From the NCBI GenBank assembly GCA_903843045.1, contig CAIMOJ010000027.1:1-54255 (forward strand): 54,255 nt of DNA, written 5' to 3'. Shown piece after piece: positions 5,913 to 53,920 of this stretch. Positions within the stretch are counted from its first letter, which is position 1; every line of letters starts with the position of its first letter. The stretch is from Candidatus Uhrbacteria bacterium. Lineage in GTDB: Bacteria; Patescibacteriota; Patescibacteriia; UBA9934; GWF2-40-263. A program made the translations under genes and the position numbers. Under the pieces are notes generated by a model. It searched no databases, was not told the origin of the DNA, and saw only the letters and a program-made list of their open reading frames with translations.

Positions 5913-7292
5913 ATGAAGCGCACAAAGATCGTCTGCACCATCGGCCCGGCGTCCGACGCCCCCGCGACATTGTCCGCGATGATCAAGTCCGGGATGAACG
6001 TCGCGCGGCTCAATTTTTCGCACGGGACGCACGCCGGGCACGCGAAGCTCGTGCGGACGATTCGCGCGACGGCGAAGAAAGCGGGCGAAACGGTCGCGAT
6101 CCTCGGCGACCTGCAGGGACCGAAGATTCGGATCGGGGTCGTGCCGGATGCCGGAGTCGTTCTGAGGAACGGCGAGACGGTTACGCTTCCGGTGACGTAC
6201 GCGGCGCTGCACAAGGACGTGAAGAGGGGCGACCGAGTTATGATCGACGACGGGATCATCGAGGTGTCGTACGTGAGCGGGAAGGCCGGGTTCATGACGG
6301 CCAAGGTCGTGAACGGCGGGACGGTCACGTCGCACAAGGGGATGAACTTTCCGGATTCGACCCTTCGCGTTTCCTCGCTGACCGCGAAGGACAAGGAGGA
6401 TATTATTTTTGGTGTTCAACAGGGGGTGGACTGGATGGCACTGTCGTTTGTCACTTCCGCGAAGGACGTGAAGACGTTGCGGAGGTTGATTCGGGAGGCG
6501 AGGAGGGTCGGAGGGTCGGAGGGTCGAAGGTTCGAAGAGCCTCGGATTATTGTCAAAATTGAAAAGCACGAGGCGCTCGACAACTTTGACGAGATTCTGG
6601 CCGCGACGGACGCGGTGATGGTGGCGCGCGGCGACCTTGGGGTGGAGACGCCGGCCGAGGACGTTCCGCTGCGACAGAAGGAGATCGTTGAGAAGTGCCG
6701 CCTCGCGGGAAAGCCCGTCGTCGTCGCGACGCAGATGCTCGACTCGATGATGCGCAACCCGCGCCCGACGCGCGCCGAGGTTTCCGACGTGGCGAACGCG
6801 GTGATTGATCACGCGGACGCGGTGATGCTCTCGGGGGAGTCCGCAAGCGGAAAGTATCCGAGGCAGGCGGTTGCCATGATGGCGAAGATCGTCGTGGAGA
6901 CCGAGGCGTCGAAGTTCGACGACGTGGCCGCCGAGGAGATCGCGGGGTCCGGAGTCGGCGCGCTCAGCGAGACGCTGAAGGCATTCGTGGCGGGAGATCT
7001 CATCTCGGGAATCGTCGCGTCGCATTCGTCCGCCCCCTGGGCGGAGAGGCTCATGATCGCGCGGCCCGAGGTTCCGCTGTTCCTTGCCTGCGCCACGGAA
7101 GCCGAGGCGCGCCAGGTCAGCATCCGCTGGGGCGTGCGTGCATTCGTGCTGAAGTCGAAGTCGTCCGTCGGGTTCGCCGAGAAGGCGATCGCCGAGCTGC
7201 GGGCCCGCAAGTGGGTCAAGAAGGGCGCGCACCTCGCGGTCGTCACGGGGGATGAGAAGGGCGCCGGGTTCGACGTGGCGGTGGCAAGATAA
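5913..7292 (+). CDS. pyk: Pyruvate kinase (carries an in-frame repeat insertion)
   Basis: [61 protein letters not shown]. Confidence 0.97.
6503..6545 (+). repeat. Octamer-unit repeat, solo arm in frame within pyk
   Basis: GAGGGTCG x3, AAGGTTCG, AAGAGCCT, CGG; 6517-6541 is identical to 8381-8405. Confidence 0.85.
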
Positions 7293-7812: not shown

Positions 7813-9073
7813 TGGACAATTGATTTTCCTACCAGATGCCCGGCCGCCCATGACGCCTGGAGGTTGAAGCCGCCGGTGAACCCGTCCACGTCCAAAATCT
7901 CTCCGGCGAAGTACAGTCCGGGACAAATGCGCGATTCCATGGTCGTCGGGTCCACTTCGGAAAGGTCGACCCCGCCCGCGGTCACGAACTCGTCGCCGGC
8001 GCCGCGCTGGATGACGTGGAGCGGGATCGCCTTGAGCCACGCGGCCGTCCGGGCCATGTCCTTTTTGGCGACCTGGTTCGCGCTCTTTGTTTTGGAAATG
8101 CCAAGGTGGTCGACGACGATGTCGGCCAGGGACTTGGGGACGAGGAGGCCGAGGACGTTGTCGAACCGCTTGTTCGGGTTTGCCGTCGCGACCGTCTCGA
8201 CGCGGGCGCGGAGGGCGTCGAGCGTCTCGTCGGGGAACAGGTCGATAGCGATTTCAAGCGGATTGGCCGCGTCGTACGGCTCGAACGCGACGATGGAAGA
8301 GAGCGCGAACACCGCCGGGCCGCTGACGCCCTTGTGGGTGAAGAGGAACGGGCCGGTGAAGGAGGGGAGGGTCGAAGGGGCGGAGGGTCGAAGGTTCGAA
8401 GAGCCGCGGTTAGAAGAGATTGTGGCGCGCTCGAACGAGAGACCCGAGATTTCCTTTGGCCAGGTCTCGGACGTGAAGAATGCATTGAGGCTCGGAGCAA
8501 GCGCGGTGATCGTGTGTCCAAGCGCCGTGGCAAACGCATACCCGTCGCCGGTCGAACCCGTGTGTCGGTACGCCTGGCCGCCCGTCGTGAGGACGAGTTT
8601 GTCGGCGACGATCGGCTCGGGTGACTCCTTCGTAAAGATAAAAAATTCATCGCCGCGCTTTTCGACGCGGGTCGCGGAAGTTTTCAAAAGGATGCGGACG
8701 TTTGACAGCGCGAACAGTTCCTCGAACGCGCGGACGATGTCGTGGCCGTCGTCGGAGACGGGGAACACGCGGAGGTCGGCCTGCGTCTTGAGCGGGACGC
8801 CGTGCGACTCGAACCAGGCCTCGACCGCCTCGGGCGGGAAGGCGTACATGGCGGAGGTGAGAAACTTTCCCCCGCGCGGATATCTCGCGAGGACGGTCTT
8901 CACGTCGCGGATCCCGGTCGTGACGTTGCAGCGGCCGCCGCCGGAGATGATGACCTTCTTTCCGAGCCCGTCGTTGCGTTCGATCAAAAAGATTTCGATG
9001 GACGGATCGTCCTCGTGCAACGTCGCGGCGGCCATCAGCCCGGCCGCGCCCCCTCCGATGATCGCGACTCGCA

Positions 9074-45752: not shown

Positions 45753-47231
45753 ATGCTCGTGCTTTTTCTCATCGCCGCCCTCGGCTTCCTCATCCTCACC
45801 TTTTTTCGCCCCCTCACCACCCTCGCGATCCTCGCCCTCTACCTCCCGTTCGAATCCGTCCTCCTCAAGCTCGCGCCCGACGAGATCTACGTCTACGCGC
45901 GCTTTTTCTCCGAGGGTCTCATCTACGTCCTCGCCGCGGTCGTCATCTGGCGCGCCCTGACGGGCACCATTCGCCTCCGCTCGACGCAGGCCGACCTTCC
46001 GTTCATCCTGTTTCTCGTCATCCTCCTCGCCTCCGTCGCCATCAACGCCGTCTCGCCGACGATCGCGATTCTTGGCACGCGCCAGATCATCCGGTTCATC
46101 CTCGTGTTTTTTATCGCCGTCCAGCTGAAGCCGACCCGCGACTACGTCCGCAATCTCACGCTTGCCCTGTTCGCGGTCGTCGGCCTCGAGTCTGTCCTCG
46201 GCATCGTCCAGTCGCTCTCCGGCGGATCGCTCGACCCGCTGCTCCTTCCGTCCGACGCGCATTCGCTCGGCGAGGTGACGCTGACCGGCGGCGTCGACGA
46301 GTTCTGGGAGCCGGGGTCGCGAGTGTTCGCGACGCTTGGGCGATATGATCGGCTTGGGAATTTCCTCTATTTCTTTTTGGCATTGGCGGTCGGATTTGCG
46401 TACGAGTTCTTTTTTATGCGTCGAGGGTCCGCGCCAATCTTGGAGAGAGGATCTTCCTGGCGCGCGGAGATCATCGCGCTGTTCGCCGTCGCCATCCCGA
46501 CGCTCATCCTCACCTACTCCCGCGCCTCGTGGTTCGCGTTCCTCCTTGCGTTCCTTTTCGTCGCCATCTGGATCAAGCGCGACCGCCGCGTGATGCTCGC
46601 CGTCGTGACCGTCATCGTCGGGGTTGTCGCCTACGTCGGAATCACAGGCCTGAACGTCCGCTACATCACCGAGGCGCCCGGACAGACGCTCGTGGAGCGA
46701 TTCTATGAGACGTTCAGCTACGCCCGCTGGCGCGGCGAATACTACGGCCTTGGACGCGTCTACTGGATGGTCCAGACCCCGCTCACCGTCGTGGCCGCGT
46801 CGCCGCTCTTCGGCTTCGGTCCCGGCCAGTTCGGCGGGGGAGCGGTCGTGGCGCTTGGCAACACGAAGGTGTACGAGCAGCTCGGCCTTCCGTTCGGCGT
46901 CTTCGGCACCGACGGGATCATCGACAACAACTGGTTCTCGCTCTGGGGCGAGACAGGCTGCCTCGGGATCTTCTTCTTCCTATGGATGTACCTCGGCCTG
47001 ATCGTCCACTGCGTCCGCGTATACCGACAAAGCAACGATCCGTTCGTCCGCGCCCTCTCGATCGGCGTCGCCGCCGCAATGCTCGGCGTCGCCATGAACG
47101 CGTTTTTGTCCACGGTGTTTGAGATCAGAACGCTCGCGTTCTACGTATGGATGTACGCGGGGTTCGTGGTGGTGCTGGGGGAAGGGGAGAATAGGGTTCC
47201 GAGGGGCGAAGGTTCGAAGAGCCTCGGGTAA
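45753..47231 (+). CDS. O-antigen ligase/Wzy_C family membrane protein
   Basis: RVFATLG, LTYSRASW, PLFGFGPGQF, IDNNWFSLWGETGCLG; many TMs; TGtTATACT-N8-ATG; last ~10 codons derive from the repeat arm. Confidence 0.82.
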   Translation: MLVLFLIAALGFLILTFFRPLTTLAILALYLPFESVLLKLAPDEIYVYARFFSEGLIYVLAAVVIWRALTGTIRLRSTQADLPFILFLVILLASVAINAVSPTIAILGTRQIIRFILVFFIAVQLKPTRDYVRNLTLALFAVVGLESVLGIVQSLSGGSLDPLLLPSDAHSLGEVTLTGGVDEFWEPGSRVFATLGRYDRLGNFLYFFLALAVGFAYEFFFMRRGSAPILERGSSWRAEIIALFAVAIPTLILTYSRASWFAFLLAFLFVAIWIKRDRRVMLAVVTVIVGVVAYVGITGLNVRYITEAPGQTLVERFYETFSYARWRGEYYGLGRVYWMVQTPLTVVAASPLFGFGPGQFGGGAVVALGNTKVYEQLGLPFGVFGTDGIIDNNWFSLWGETGCLGIFFFLWMYLGLIVHCVRVYRQSNDPFVRALSIGVAAAMLGVAMNAFLSTVFEIRTLAFYVWMYAGFVVVLGEGENRVPRGEGSKSLG

Positions 47232-47644
47232 CGATATGCTGTTTACCTATAAGGATCTGACTGTTTGGAACAAGGCCGTGGAGTTGGCTGATATTGTCTA
47301 TAAACTGACGAGGTCTTTTCCAACGGAGGAGAAGTGCGGGCTTGTTTCTCAAATGCGAAGATCCGCCGTCTCAATTCCGTCGAATATTGCCGAGGGGCGT
47401 CTGCGAGGCTCCGACAAGTCTTGTCGAAATTTTCTTCTCATTAGCTTCGGTTCCGCAGGAGAACTCGATACGCAGATCCAAATCGCAAAACGGATTCAGG
47501 AAACAGCGAGCCTTGACTTTCGTGTCGCCGAATCTCTCTTGGATGAAATTCTTCGAATGCTCAACCGCATGATCGAACAGTTGTCTGCGGCAGAGCACAC
47601 AAACCAATAAGCCCTCTTCTTGGCTCTTCGAACCTTCGCCCCTC
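47201..47644. mobile_element. IVS-like element: four-helix-bundle gene enclosed by perfect 23-bp inverted repeats
   Basis: GAGGGGCGAAGGTTCGAAGAGCC (47201-23) and its exact reverse complement (47622-44); mobility is inferred, no recombinase present. Confidence 0.65.
47236..47610 (+). CDS. Four helix bundle protein (23S rRNA IVS protein / TIGR02436-like, Avd-related)
   Basis: YKDLTVWNKA, FPTEEK, LVSQMRRSAVSIPSNIAEG, SAGELDTQI; visibly more AT-rich than its neighbours. Confidence 0.92.
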   Translation: MLFTYKDLTVWNKAVELADIVYKLTRSFPTEEKCGLVSQMRRSAVSIPSNIAEGRLRGSDKSCRNFLLISFGSAGELDTQIQIAKRIQETASLDFRVAESLLDEILRMLNRMIEQLSAAEHTNQ

Positions 47645-47670
47645 ATCACCCCTCCGAACCCTTTGCTCGT

Positions 47671-50926: not shown

Positions 50927-52837
50927 TCAGTTCAATGACATCGTAAACACGTCGCTCGACAGCCCGATGATTTCCGCCCTGCCGTCCTTGTCGATGTCCG
51001 CGGCGGTAACTTCGACGCCGTTGCGCTCGCTTGCGTCCGCGGCGAAGAAGTCCGACTTCTTCTTTCCGTCGCGGTCGAACGTCCGAATTTCCGGGCTCCC
51101 TCCCTTTCCGGCCCCCGCGACGATGTCGCCGATTCCGTCTCCGTCCACGTCGCCGACCGCCACGTTCACGCCGCCCCGGAAGGCGGGATCGTAGGCGAAG
51201 AATCCCGGGTTGATGAGCCTGCCCGCCTTGTTGAAAACCCGTATCTGCGGTCCGCCTCCGACGCCGGCGCCGGCGATGATCTCGTCCACGCGGTCGCCGT
51301 TCAAATCGCCGATGGCCACGTTTACGCCGCCGCGGAACGCCGTGTCATACGCGAAGAAGCCGGGGTTGATGAGATTGCCATCCTTGTTGAAGATGCGAAT
51401 CTGCGGGCCGCCGCCGTTCTCCGTCCCCGTGACGATCTCGACGGACCCGTCGTGCTCGAGGTCGCCGATCGCGAGGTTGATGCCGAGCCTGAACGATTCC
51501 GTGTACGGCGCGAATTTGGCATGGACCGTGCCGTCGGCGTTATAGATCGTGACGTACGTGTTGTCCGCCACGACGGTCTCGTTCTTCCCGTCGCCGTCGA
51601 GGTCGTAGGAATTCACCTGCGTCCCGCCCTTCGCCCTGCGCTCGTAGGCGAAGAACCCGTTGCGCTTCGTCGCGCCGGTCGCGGAGAAGACGTGGGCGAA
51701 TGATCCGTTGAGATAGGTCGCGTCGACGATCGTCTCGAGCGGCCGGAGGAGAAGGATTCCGTCCTGCGGCGCGAGCGTGAGCTTGGAAACGATCGATCCG
51801 TTGTTCGTCGCGGGATCCTGGGTTCCGCGAAGCTTCTCGTATTCGCCGTCGAGCCTCACGGTCTGGGGGACGTTCGTCGGGTTGACGACGGTCTCGCCCT
51901 GCTCGTATTCGCGCTTCCAGACGTTCGACGTCTGTTCCGCGGATCCCTTCGGCGCGCCGAGCGACGCGGAGTACTCGTCGTACGTCCAGAGCTGCGCGTG
52001 GTTCTGCGTGCCGAAGTCGTAGCCGAAGTACCCGTCTCCAAGCAGCGTCGTGGCGAGCCCGAAGCGCATCTTCCGGTAGTTGGTCTGCGCGCCCGTGTTG
52101 TCCGTGTTCACGTTCACGGCGATGACCGCGTCGTGGCCGACCTTCGACGGGAGGGAGAGGTAGTCCTTCGTCTGCGACGTCCACGAGGAGGTCGGATCGC
52201 CGGCGGAAGGGAAGGTCTCGAACATGCGGCCGTTGACGTACGGCGTGAACGACGCCGAGGACGATCCGTTCGTGACGATCACCGCGGAGCTGCCAAGCTT
52301 CGATCGCGTCACGGCCAGGAGGTGCGCGTACCCGCTCTTCCAGTCGTCGCGGTCCTGCACCTCGTCGTAAAAGATTCCATCCCAGAGTCCCGTGCCCATC
52401 ACGTTGGTCTTCGCGAACTCGGCGAGATAATCCGACCATCCGGAGTTCAGGTCGAGCGCGGTCGTGTTCGGCCAGATGGAAACGCGCCCGCCGTTCGCGT
52501 CCTTCAGCCACCAGTCGGGACGGATCCCGCGCTTCATCTGCGCGTGGAGCGGATCGGACCAGAAGGCGTTGTTCCACGAGACGGTCGGGACGTACGCGAG
52601 GATGATGATGTCGGGGTTCAGTTTTCGCACGGCGGAAAAAAACGGCTTGTTGTATACTTGGGCCTCGGACGGGATGACGATCAGGTCGAAGGAGGACAGC
52701 GTCGCGATGGTCGCCTGGTTCTCCAGCGCGGATCCGGACATCAGGTAGTAGTTCGACGTCCGCACAAAGTCGCCGTTCGCCGCGAGCGCGGCAACGGGGA
52801 AGAGGAGGGAAGTCAGGATGATCGCGAGGTACTTCAT
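50927..52837 (-). CDS. Secreted putative glycoside hydrolase (TIM barrel, GHL15/GH114-like) fused to FG-GAP/VCBS repeats
   Basis: Signal peptide; WDGIFYDE, NGRMFETF, MRFGLATTLL; four GD(L/V)xGDG-type repeats with GGPQIRxF. Confidence 0.7.
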   Translation of the reverse strand: MKYLAIILTSLLFPVAALAANGDFVRTSNYYLMSGSALENQATIATLSSFDLIVIPSEAQVYNKPFFSAVRKLNPDIIILAYVPTVSWNNAFWSDPLHAQMKRGIRPDWWLKDANGGRVSIWPNTTALDLNSGWSDYLAEFAKTNVMGTGLWDGIFYDEVQDRDDWKSGYAHLLAVTRSKLGSSAVIVTNGSSSASFTPYVNGRMFETFPSAGDPTSSWTSQTKDYLSLPSKVGHDAVIAVNVNTDNTGAQTNYRKMRFGLATTLLGDGYFGYDFGTQNHAQLWTYDEYSASLGAPKGSAEQTSNVWKREYEQGETVVNPTNVPQTVRLDGEYEKLRGTQDPATNNGSIVSKLTLAPQDGILLLRPLETIVDATYLNGSFAHVFSATGATKRNGFFAYERRAKGGTQVNSYDLDGDGKNETVVADNTYVTIYNADGTVHAKFAPYTESFRLGINLAIGDLEHDGSVEIVTGTENGGGPQIRIFNKDGNLINPGFFAYDTAFRGGVNVAIGDLNGDRVDEIIAGAGVGGGPQIRVFNKAGRLINPGFFAYDPAFRGGVNVAVGDVDGDGIGDIVAGAGKGGSPEIRTFDRDGKKKSDFFAADASERNGVEVTAADIDKDGRAEIIGLSSDVFTMSLN

Positions 52838-53145
52838 GGGTTCCCAGGGACGTTCGTCCCGATTGTCTCGTCCTCGATCGACTTCGGATTCGGGGAGAAC
52901 AGTTTGTTCTTTATGCGCCACTGGTTCACGTACTGGCCGATCCCCGTTTTGTCGCGCTTGTTGCGGACGGTCGTGGTATCCTGTGACCACTTGAGCAGGC
53001 TCTCAAAGTTCAGCTTATACCTTCCTTGGACCACGACATAGGTAATTTGTCCATCGGCCACGGCCCGACGGATCGTCCTCTGGGACACGCCGAACATCCG
53101 GGCGGCCTCGGAAACGGAGAGACGGATGATGGAGGTGATGGGCAT
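52834..53145 (-). CDS. Small helix-turn-helix (excisionase/MerR-like) DNA-binding protein
   Basis: LSVSEAARMFGVSQRTIRRAV; ATGA overlap with the downstream gene. Confidence 0.8.
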   Translation of the reverse strand: MPITSIIRLSVSEAARMFGVSQRTIRRAVADGQITYVVVQGRYKLNFESLLKWSQDTTTVRNKRDKTGIGQYVNQWRIKNKLFSPNPKSIEDETIGTNVPGNP

Positions 53146-53150
53146 AGCGT

Positions 53151-53232
53151 GAGGAGGGTTCGTAGGGTTGAGGAGGGTCGAAGGTTCGAAGGGTCGAGGT
53201 TCTTCGAACCTGGAACCCTGGTCACCCTAACC
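53151..53232. repeat. Gene-less palindromic copy of the octamer-unit repeat
   Basis: AGGTTCGAAG (53182-91) / CTTCGAACCT (53202-11) perfect IR, flanked by AGGGTT / AACCCT units. Confidence 0.8.
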
Positions 53233-53305
53233 CAAGTTTGTCCACACCAGTGTAGCCAAAATCATCTAAAAAGTCCACTAAAACCGTGCAAACCACTCCA
53301 AACCC

Positions 53306-53334
53306 TTGATTTTTTGGCTAAAGTAAGCTATACT
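53306..53334 (+). promoter_or_regulatory. Sigma70 promoter of the ECF sigma operon
   Basis: TTGATT-N17-TATACT. Confidence 0.6.
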
Positions 53335-53374
53335 GACCTCCTTTTGTAACAAATTTCCAAACCCATCTATTCCT

Positions 53375-53920
53375 GTGCATAGCGAACGCGAAAAATTCCT
53401 TCTCTTCCGGATTCGGACGCACCAGGACCAGCGGGCATTTGCCGAACTGTTCCTGGAGTATAAGAAATCCCTGTACACGTTCTTGTGCAGCCGGCTCTCC
53501 TCGACCGAGGACGCCGACGACATGTTGAACACGGTTTTCCTGCGGGCATGGAACTTTGTTCTCACCTCGCACTCCACCGACAAGGATCACTTCTCCGGCC
53601 TGGTCTTCCACATCGCCCGCTATGCGATCAAGGACTACTGGAAGGGAAAAAAGAACGACGCGTCGCTCTCCGAGATGCAGGAATCCGGACACGACTTCGA
53701 GGACACGCAGCGGTCGTCCGGCGCCATCGAGGCGAACGCGGAACTCCGCATGATCAAGGACGCGCTTCACAAGCTGCCGGAAGATTTTCAGGAAGTGATC
53801 GCGCTCCGCGTCTTCGAACAGCTCGACTTCAACGAGATCGCCAAGCGAATGGAAAAGACGGCCGGCGCCGTGCGAGTGACCCTTCACCGGGCGCTCAAGG
53901 AACTCCGAACACACCTATGA
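53375..53920 (+). CDS. ECF-type sigma-70 family RNA polymerase sigma factor
   Basis: Region 2 (AFAELF...DADDMLNTVFLRAW...FHIAR) and region 4 (LHKLPEDFQEVIALR...EIAKRM...VRVTLHRAL); GTG start. Confidence 0.9.
   Translation: MHSEREKFLLFRIRTHQDQRAFAELFLEYKKSLYTFLCSRLSSTEDADDMLNTVFLRAWNFVLTSHSTDKDHFSGLVFHIARYAIKDYWKGKKNDASLSEMQESGHDFEDTQRSSGAIEANAELRMIKDALHKLPEDFQEVIALRVFEQLDFNEIAKRMEKTAGAVRVTLHRALKELRTHL

Follow-up and report, generated by a model that had tools for sequence, protein, structure and literature searches.

A solo, gene-less hairpin in the leader of an HTH gene of Candidatus Uhrbacteria and its kinship with a PF05635 cassette

The palindrome at 53151–53232 of the window (the whole 54,255-nt stretch analyzed here, contig C27 of its genome) lies between divergent genes for an HTH protein and an ECF-type sigma factor, and raises the question of whether it is a repeat element, the remnant of a larger one, a site of gene capture or a regulator of the neighboring operon. 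The source genome is that of a groundwater Candidatus Uhrbacteria (G000; 1.28 Mb, 61% G+C, 76 contigs), with an assembly that is 96% complete and in which gene absences are not absolute. The first-pass annotation had seen in the palindrome a gene-less version of a four-helix cassette present at 47.2–47.6 kb, and had offered as explanations a non-autonomous derivative or excision scar, a target structure capturing four-helix genes, and a regulatory role for the HTH-glycoside hydrolase operon.

The palindrome is an imperfect hairpin in which G-rich 8-nt units stand opposite their own complements. A repeat search gave inner inverted arms at 53166–53191 and 53202–53227 (26 nt, 77% complementary, 10-nt gap) and outer arms at 53145–53161 and 53213–53229. 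On either strand the palindrome has a G-rich arm on its 5' side and a C-rich one on its 3' side, and the + strand carries four GGG tracts. Folded as RNA, each strand forms one long imperfect hairpin, at -46.2 kcal/mol (z -3.3) for the + strand and -41.1 kcal/mol (z -4.0) for the - strand, and none of 200 shuffles folded as well. The geometry given in the first-pass annotation holds in each respect: the unit sequences quoted for the arms are present, the arms face each other across 10 nt, and the edge of the palindrome is 5 nt from the start codon of the HTH ORF (53145, minus strand), between the divergent HTH and ECF sigma genes. Among Rfam models the sole match in the palindrome region was a chance hit to mir-584 (24.8 bits; gathering score, 80). 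No terminator-like site (GC-rich stem followed by a U tract) was found within 53100–53420, and no rRNA match within 52800–53500, where the palindrome sits between protein-coding genes.

The HTH gene (52834–53145, - strand), which has the hairpin in its 5' leader, belongs to the HTH_17/excisionase family of DNA-binding proteins according to Pfam and NCBIfam, and is single-copy and conserved across the order (37 of 41 searched genomes, G000 included; 60–98% identity in relatives). Its stop codon overlaps the ATG of a gene for a GHL15/FG-GAP secreted protein (50927–52837, - strand; Pfam and ORF evidence) in an ATGA at 52834–52837, so that the two genes form an operon. The putative HTH promoter (TGGACT, 17-nt spacer, TACACT; 53249–53277, - strand) is part of a block, TTGAC(T/A)-N17-TAC(A/T)CT-GGTGTGGACAAA, kept upstream of the HTH gene in relatives; a consensus promoter scanner placed it below its cut-off. 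The predicted transcript start, near 53242, precedes the hairpin by about 10 nt, and since the promoter block lies upstream of the hairpin, the whole hairpin would fall within the HTH 5' leader. Together with the ATGA overlap, this putative promoter supports placement in the leader of the HTH-GHL15 operon. The divergent ECF-type sigma factor gene (53375–53920, + strand) has a promoter-like site (TTGATT, 17-nt spacer, TATACT; 53306–53334, + strand) that points away from the hairpin.

Three further observations concern this region. The GGTGTGGACAAA block (53233–53248 of the window), situated right after the HTH -10 element, is kept throughout the order; it may serve as an operator or as a signal of the initial transcribed region. 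No Shine-Dalgarno sequence occurs in the HTH leaders compared (L002–L012), most of which end in CCT or CTT before the ATG. Several assemblies with the Uhrbacteria-type promoter-HTH locus are labeled 'uncultured Gammaproteobacteria bacterium' (TPA; L091–L106), and these records are probably mislabeled.

The palindrome had been described as a gene-less version in the singular, which proved to be wrong, for G000 has 16 full copies in all. A 12-mer core, GAAGGTTCGAAG, common to the palindrome and the arms of the four-helix cassette, occurs 33 times in G000 against 0.15 expected. A nhmmer profile of the full copies detects 16 full-length hairpins of ~85 nt and about 13 half copies; a covariance model, R1, picks out these 16 loci as well. 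The match of the palindrome to both profile and model extends over both arms and is significant (nhmmer, E 2e-18; R1 at 53150–53235, 74 bits, E 2e-18), which makes it a solo, i.e., gene-less, copy of the AGGGTTCG-unit hairpin family, among the lower-scoring full copies (13 of the 15 others score 78–93 bits). The family consensus reads AGGGTTCG-nAGGGGTG-AGAGGGTC-GAAGGTTC-GAAG, loop AGCCGCGGTT, then the complement; each arm consists of approximately four degenerate 8-nt G-rich units, with variant units in fixed order across copies.

Most solos in G000 fill exactly the spacer between co-directional housekeeping genes, for example at the trxA-trxB and nusB-rnc junctions and upstream of tpiA, ndk, rplA, and a pseudouridine synthase gene. 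The stop codon is often within the first unit (TAGGGTTCG), and the start codon comes right after the last one (CCCTATG). Within the family, the placement of the palindrome in a divergent intergenic region and a 5' leader is unusual. Half copies, consisting of one arm only, are found in coding regions of the window at 6503–6547 (+ strand, G-rich arm; nhmmer E 4e-7), in frame as 14 residues, and at 8370–8411 (+ strand; E 7e-7), and in further long ORFs of G000 (C76:31548–31585, C76:33660–33705, C23:4062–4098, and C71:5324–5355). Half copies within long ORFs are free of stops, one of them translating as ...KGSEVERDEGSKG...; their strand in coding regions is unreliable, the codon-usage gene caller having missed small genes and sometimes called the wrong strand.

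Other hairpins of G000 were seen alongside this family. A second, larger family has outer arms AAGTTCGAAG...AAAAAAGAT of ~50 nt, which enclose inner hairpins of foreign unit families and give compound or nested palindromes of up to -69 kcal/mol (C6:15680–15850, C32:2575–2750, C22:8095–8250, C69:1030–1130, and C2:10075–10149). A mini-hairpin, CCCTCTCCTTxxxAAGGAGAGGG, is very abundant in G000 (e.g., C46:43262–43357, C46:146885–146968, and many further sites) and common to genomes G001, G003, and G006.

The family alignment has compensatory changes at none of 17 pairs, so the structure is kept by descent only, which says nothing for selection on structure and nothing against the structure itself. 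The RNA hairpin is weaker on the sense strand than on the antisense strand in 13 of 15 copies (mean +5.1 kcal/mol), a pattern that gives no hint of a strong mRNA stem having been selected for. Inherited loop asymmetry combined with orientation bias more likely accounts for this antisense advantage than independent events. The strand test was dropped as a sign of RNA-level selection, since it amounts to orientation bias (13 of 15 copies).

The cassette at 47.2–47.6 kb has a left G-rich arm at 47185–47227 (+ strand; nhmmer E 5e-6, profile positions 13–55), which doubles as coding sequence for the last residues of a Wzy_C protein, and a right C-rich arm at 47620–47665 (+ strand), which stops just short of the ATG of a GT4 gene. 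In the right arm, 47620–47662 corresponds to profile positions 52–93 (nhmmer E 3e-3), and on the other strand 47665–47621 corresponds to positions 9–52 (E 5e-4). Between the arms lies a four-helix-bundle gene (47236–47610, + strand) of PF05635/TIGR02436, the 23S rRNA IVS protein family (Pfam E 1.6e-33; NCBIfam), the product of which matches PDB 2GSC at E 6e-23, the nearest solved relative being XCC0516 of Xanthomonas, a protein reported to be a pentameric toroid (Warrier et al., 2016; PMC4990558). The cassette reads GAAGAGCC-TCGG[gene]GGCTCTTC and the solo GAAGAGCC-TCGG-TTCTTAG, the cassette arms being the left and right halves of the solo profile and sharing with it the 12-mer GAAGGTTCGAAG. 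The first-pass description of the palindrome as the 47.2–47.6 kb architecture without cargo is therefore confirmed and, to judge by its arms, the 47.2-kb cassette is a hairpin of this family that carries a 390-bp gene in the loop.

Hairpin caging of four-helix genes is general in the order. Flank inverted-repeat scores reach or exceed the 95th percentile of 300 control genes at 22 of the 26 scorable PF05635 loci in relatives (four-helix loci vs. controls, Mann-Whitney p 4e-15). The upstream arm is G-rich at 21 of the 22 caged loci, and the arms are tandem 7–9 nt units private to each locus. At the Wzy-GT4 junction, G000 and the more distant G002 have the same cassette type, with proteins 76% identical and GGTTCG/GGGTCG arms. 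In G003, the arms at this junction are made of AAGGC units and the cassette protein shares only 55% identity with that of G000, where the arms are of AGGGTTCG type. G004, a genome with six four-helix genes in addition to hairpins, has a cassette with GAGGCC/AAGCC arms and a B-like protein 64% identical to that of G003, and in G014 the protein is 66% identical to that of G000 and the arms are AGGTTCGCAGG, of the GGTTCG type. Arm units hence track four-helix protein similarity, which indicates that arms and gene travel as one unit. Flanking DNA is 91–99% identical between G000 and G003 at 11 of the 14 pieces matched in G003 and 71–85% identical at the other three; the cassette has been swapped in situ between these close relatives.

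Alleles of the HTH leader were collected from genus genomes and by pattern scans of species genomes and metagenome contigs, giving 35 besides that of G000. The leader is only 2–25 nt long in 21 of them (e.g., 11–15 nt from GGACAAA to ATG in G001, G002, G004, G005, and G007), and the other 14 have inserts of 58–272 nt belonging to at least nine unrelated unit families. Thus G003, the closest relative (98% HTH identity), carries a hairpin of TTAGGC/AAGGCTGAA units, G006 one of GAAATTG units, and two metagenome alleles, L126 and L134, share outer arms and differ in loop contents, that of L134 being a complete second unit-hairpin nested in the loop. A four-helix gene was present at the HTH locus in none of the 35 alleles. 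With a leader of originally 2–25 nt and inserts of unrelated families, the hairpin is a lineage-specific insert at a hot spot, not a conserved regulator.

The joined flanks of nine other solo sites of G000 were searched in eight other genus genomes. Matches were uninterrupted or had gaps of 35–170 nt; gaps of cassette size (450–550 nt) were found at none of these nine sites. Where junctions were fetched, spacers of 2–15 nt were seen in some genomes and hairpins of other unit families at the identical stop and start codons in others. The trxA-trxB junction, for example, holds four different families in four genomes and none in two. Such presence/absence polymorphism is found between close relatives: of ten G000 solo sites examined in G003, seven have an insert and an eighth an ambiguous gap of +132 nt, with the G000 family at none, and of ten G003 solo sites with well-matched flanks in G000, about six hold other inserts there and four are hairpin-free. 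At junctions where G000 has its AGGGTTCG hairpin, a CCCCTCCTCATAGGGAGGAGGGG element was also noted in G003. The first-pass annotation had named two findings that together would tell against it, the lack of a filled allele anywhere and the lack of relation to four-helix arms; no allele filled with a four-helix gene appeared among the 35 alleles or the nine other solo sites in eight genus genomes, and the palindrome is clearly related to those arms.

The dominant solo family of each genome matches its own cassette arms. Searches with model R1, built for the AGGGTTCG family, gave 16 loci for G000, about 6 for G014, 4 for G002, and 3 weak ones for G003. With model R2, built for the AAGGC family, G003 has about 14 loci, G006 about 5, and G004 about 10 that are weak; G000 has a single weak locus and G002 none. 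GTGAGTA-unit solos in G003 and TAGCGTG-unit solos in G002 also match cassette arms of their own genomes. At five pairs of filled and empty sites with flanks 94–99% identical, no target-site duplication was found; the entire spacer differs, and two of the pairs also differ in the final codons of the gene before it. Lack of target-site duplication together with whole-spacer differences is a poor fit to simple cut-and-paste. Beside solos, the last 2–4 upstream codons were seen to diverge (5 of 12 nt identical) in genes otherwise about 95% identical (G003 L080 and L083 vs. G000 C53:2573–2618 and C11:5112–5150), which looks like patch replacement rather than clean insertion. At the trxA-trxB junction of G002 (C92:2850–3130, L059) the hairpin is strongly asymmetric, with about 14 TAGCGTG/TAGGGTG units opposite about 5, which suggests that unit arrays expand by slippage after insertion.

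The palindrome is likely to be a solo member, without cargo, of a ~85-nt hairpin family that is specific to its lineage and of which the PF05635 cassette is the cargo form. It is an insert in the originally short leader of a conserved HTH gene, itself a hot spot of hairpin insertion, and would be transcribed within the 5' leader from the promoter upstream. The leader RNA is expected to fold into a long imperfect stem, the base of which would bring the 5' end beside the AUG, and the stem would probably be cut by RNase III, like the stems of ORF-bearing 23S rRNA IVS, or simply be tolerated. An RNase III gene (rnc) is encoded in G000. A family copy (C8:3142–3224) was also observed directly 5' of this gene, at the nusB-rnc junction, and if RNase III cuts family stems, rnc would stand behind its own substrate, a parallel to E. 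coli rnc, which is autoregulated. The palindrome would be a selfish or near-neutral passenger and not a dedicated regulator. The best-supported lead is that solos and cassette make up one system, with the solos as the non-autonomous form, as the cognate pairing of each genome's dominant solo family with its own cassette arms would suggest. Since G000 has 16 solos and one cognate cassette, with no filled allele at the sampled sites, solos most likely spread as solos.

An alternative is that solos are pre-existing targets with loops that capture four-helix genes and other elements, the locus at 53151–53232 being an unfilled acceptor. The cargo does lie exactly in the loop of a family hairpin, compound hairpins of G000 have foreign inner hairpins, and L126 and L134 share outer arms and differ in the loop, a complete second hairpin in the case of L134. 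This speaks for the first-pass idea of a target structure that captures genes. Against it, arm units co-vary with the four-helix protein and follow its phylogeny, so that gene and arms move together, and a filled allele was met neither among the 35 alleles nor at the nine other solo sites in eight genomes. Such a landing pad is unlikely.

Arrays of G-rich heptamers, GGGAATC in Xanthomonas and GGGGA(C/T)T in Nostoc, show a preference for four units and lie between aligned ORFs, at most 50 bp from a stop or start codon; each genome has 70–75 pairs of them in convergent (inverted) arrangement (Rehm et al., 2015, PMC4692102). They are mostly transcribed, are polymorphic between species, have the G-rich arm first, and were read as quadruplex-forming simple repeats, with no link to PF05635 made (PMC4692102). 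The family described here is similar in that convergent short G-rich units fill stop-to-start spacers with a G-rich 5' arm, and differs in the fixed order of its variant 8-nt units, those arrays consisting of near-perfect 7-nt units; the palindrome at 53151–53232 is moreover atypical in lying in a divergent region and not between co-directional genes. Its polarity and placement, and the four GGG tracts of its + strand, would nevertheless allow it to be a G-quadruplex tandem repeat pair of the Xanthomonas/Nostoc type (Rehm et al., 2015, PMC4692102) that works as DNA, which is compatible with its being a solo family member. Since both arms are there to pair, the duplex hairpin should be favored over a quadruplex with loops of 6–13 nt, and many sister families (e.g., those of GAAATTG and AGTTGTAAAG units) are without G tracts, so that a quadruplex role is quite unlikely.

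A local excision scar, left when a complete cassette at this site lost its gene and the arms were joined, would explain why the solo sequence is equivalent to left and right arm joined at the loop; long palindromes are known to be prone to deletion. The short loop AGCCGCGGTT is conserved in solos, which fits descent from a solo master and not 16 independent deletions, and each relative of the site that was sampled either lacks an insert or has a different solo. Solos number 16 and the cognate cassette is a single one, so that a scar is very unlikely. Of the two origins joined in the first-pass annotation, the non-autonomous form fits the cognate arms, and the local scar is disfavored.

Dedicated cis-regulation of the HTH-GHL15 operon, with the hairpin as an HTH operator, an attenuator or an RNA switch masking the start codon, has in its favor a stable stem in the leader 5 nt from the AUG. 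The hairpin is absent in 21 of the 35 other alleles, with unrelated sequences in the remainder, the same element stands at unrelated housekeeping junctions, and it has no Rfam family, terminator-like site or covariation. A cis-regulatory function is therefore most improbable, and a special role of this locus finds no support, given the short ancestral leader and the unrelated hairpins of 14 alleles.

Bacterial genomes contain several classes of small multicopy non-coding hairpins that are co-transcribed and lie in or near genes, including Correia/NEMIS, ERIC/IRU, RUP, BOX, and Rickettsia palindromic elements. Correia elements are RNase III substrates, and Rickettsia palindromic elements lie in frame in coding sequence, a position which the in-frame half copies found here resemble. 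The family is MITE-like in being small, non-coding, multicopy, flanked by terminal inverted repeats, and polymorphic for presence and absence. It is unlike MITE-like hairpins in having neither a target-site duplication nor a recognized transposase partner (Y1 was searched), in arms that are tandem unit arrays, and in the repeated occurrence of different families at the same junctions. REP elements are palindromes of ~25–35 nt with a conserved tag, the partner of which is a Y1 transposase (RAYT); as intergenic palindromes within operons that form genome-specific families, the hairpins show some likeness to REP/BIME/REPIN sequences. Movement by a RAYT is scarcely credible, for although 1–3 Y1_Tnp-like genes occur in eight of the nine genus genomes, no Y1_Tnp (PF01797) match was found in G000 (assembly 96% complete) despite its 16 copies, and the units are not themselves palindromic REPs and have no GTAG-type tag.

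A closer comparison for the solo and its cassette is offered by 23S rRNA IVS. PF05635 proteins are the orphan 'S23p' of 23S rRNA intervening sequences and relatives of DGR Avd. In Leptospira and in helix 45 of Coxiella burnetii, IVS have terminal inverted repeats, a long stem, and a PF05635 gene in the loop. The 47.2-kb cassette is built as an IVS, and the palindrome is an IVS-like stem minus the ORF: it shares the long stem formed by terminal inverted repeats, and IVS, too, lie in transcribed non-coding sequence. It differs from IVS in its probable location in an mRNA leader and not in a 23S rRNA helix (9, 25 or 45), in its 10-nt loop without a PF05635 ORF (the ORF being only in the cassette, 47236–47610), and in arms that are arrays of 8-nt units present in many solo copies. 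In Coxiella, RNase III cleaves the stems of IVS with a gene of this PF05635 family at mid-stem (Warrier et al., 2016, PMC4990558). The IVS ORF was proposed as a mobility component by Ralph and McClelland (1993), as cited in PMC4990558. Among publications searched on PF05635, TIGR02436, S23p, and CPR palindromic repeats, none described PF05635 cassettes with cognate solos, the nearest being PMC4990558 and PMC4692102.

The cassette that shares the solo ends encodes only a PF05635 protein, and Y1 transposase (PF01797) was not found in G000. It is possible, if doubtful, that PF05635 proteins are trans-acting partners of arrays of their own units, and that a cassette seeds, maintains or overwrites solos at fragile stop/start junctions and in short leaders. 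The cognate matching of solos and cassettes would fit action of the protein on solos but falls short of proof, and G006 has solos and no PF05635 gene; common descent can explain the pairing with the protein not acting on solos at all. A reverse transcriptase (RT) route of DGR type was rejected as a requirement, as G004, G005, and G007 are without RT, yet G004 has hairpins. The only RT gene of G000 (C9:22231–22839; a 365-aa frame of DGR-like size) lies on a contig with three full solos, and its ortholog in G003 (C2:150228–150836) on a contig that also holds the trxA-trxB and ndk solos; no link between the RT genes of G000 and G003 and the hairpins was found.

Taken alone, the palindrome is an ordinary passenger repeat; the repeat system to which it belongs is only partly described. 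Its value lies in comparison, since in a single genus a given short junction may be free of inserts, hold a solo, or hold a hairpin that belongs to a different family. G000 and G003, with flanks mostly 91–99% identical, each have about 15 solos that match their own, different cassette arms. The searchable literature treats inverted G-rich arrays (PMC4692102) and IVS ORFs (PMC4990558) separately. For annotation, the consequence is that hairpins of this kind beside start codons are not to be taken for riboswitches or attenuators. If PF05635 proteins do act on arrays of their own units, the cassette swap between G000 and G003 would have been followed by a genome-wide turnover of solo families at the same sites, and the system would be a class of mobile or self-renewing elements without a classical transposase, with patch replacement of spacers sans target duplication as its footprint. 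This genus provides filled, empty, and swapped sites at which action of the IVS ORF product on its arms may be tested.
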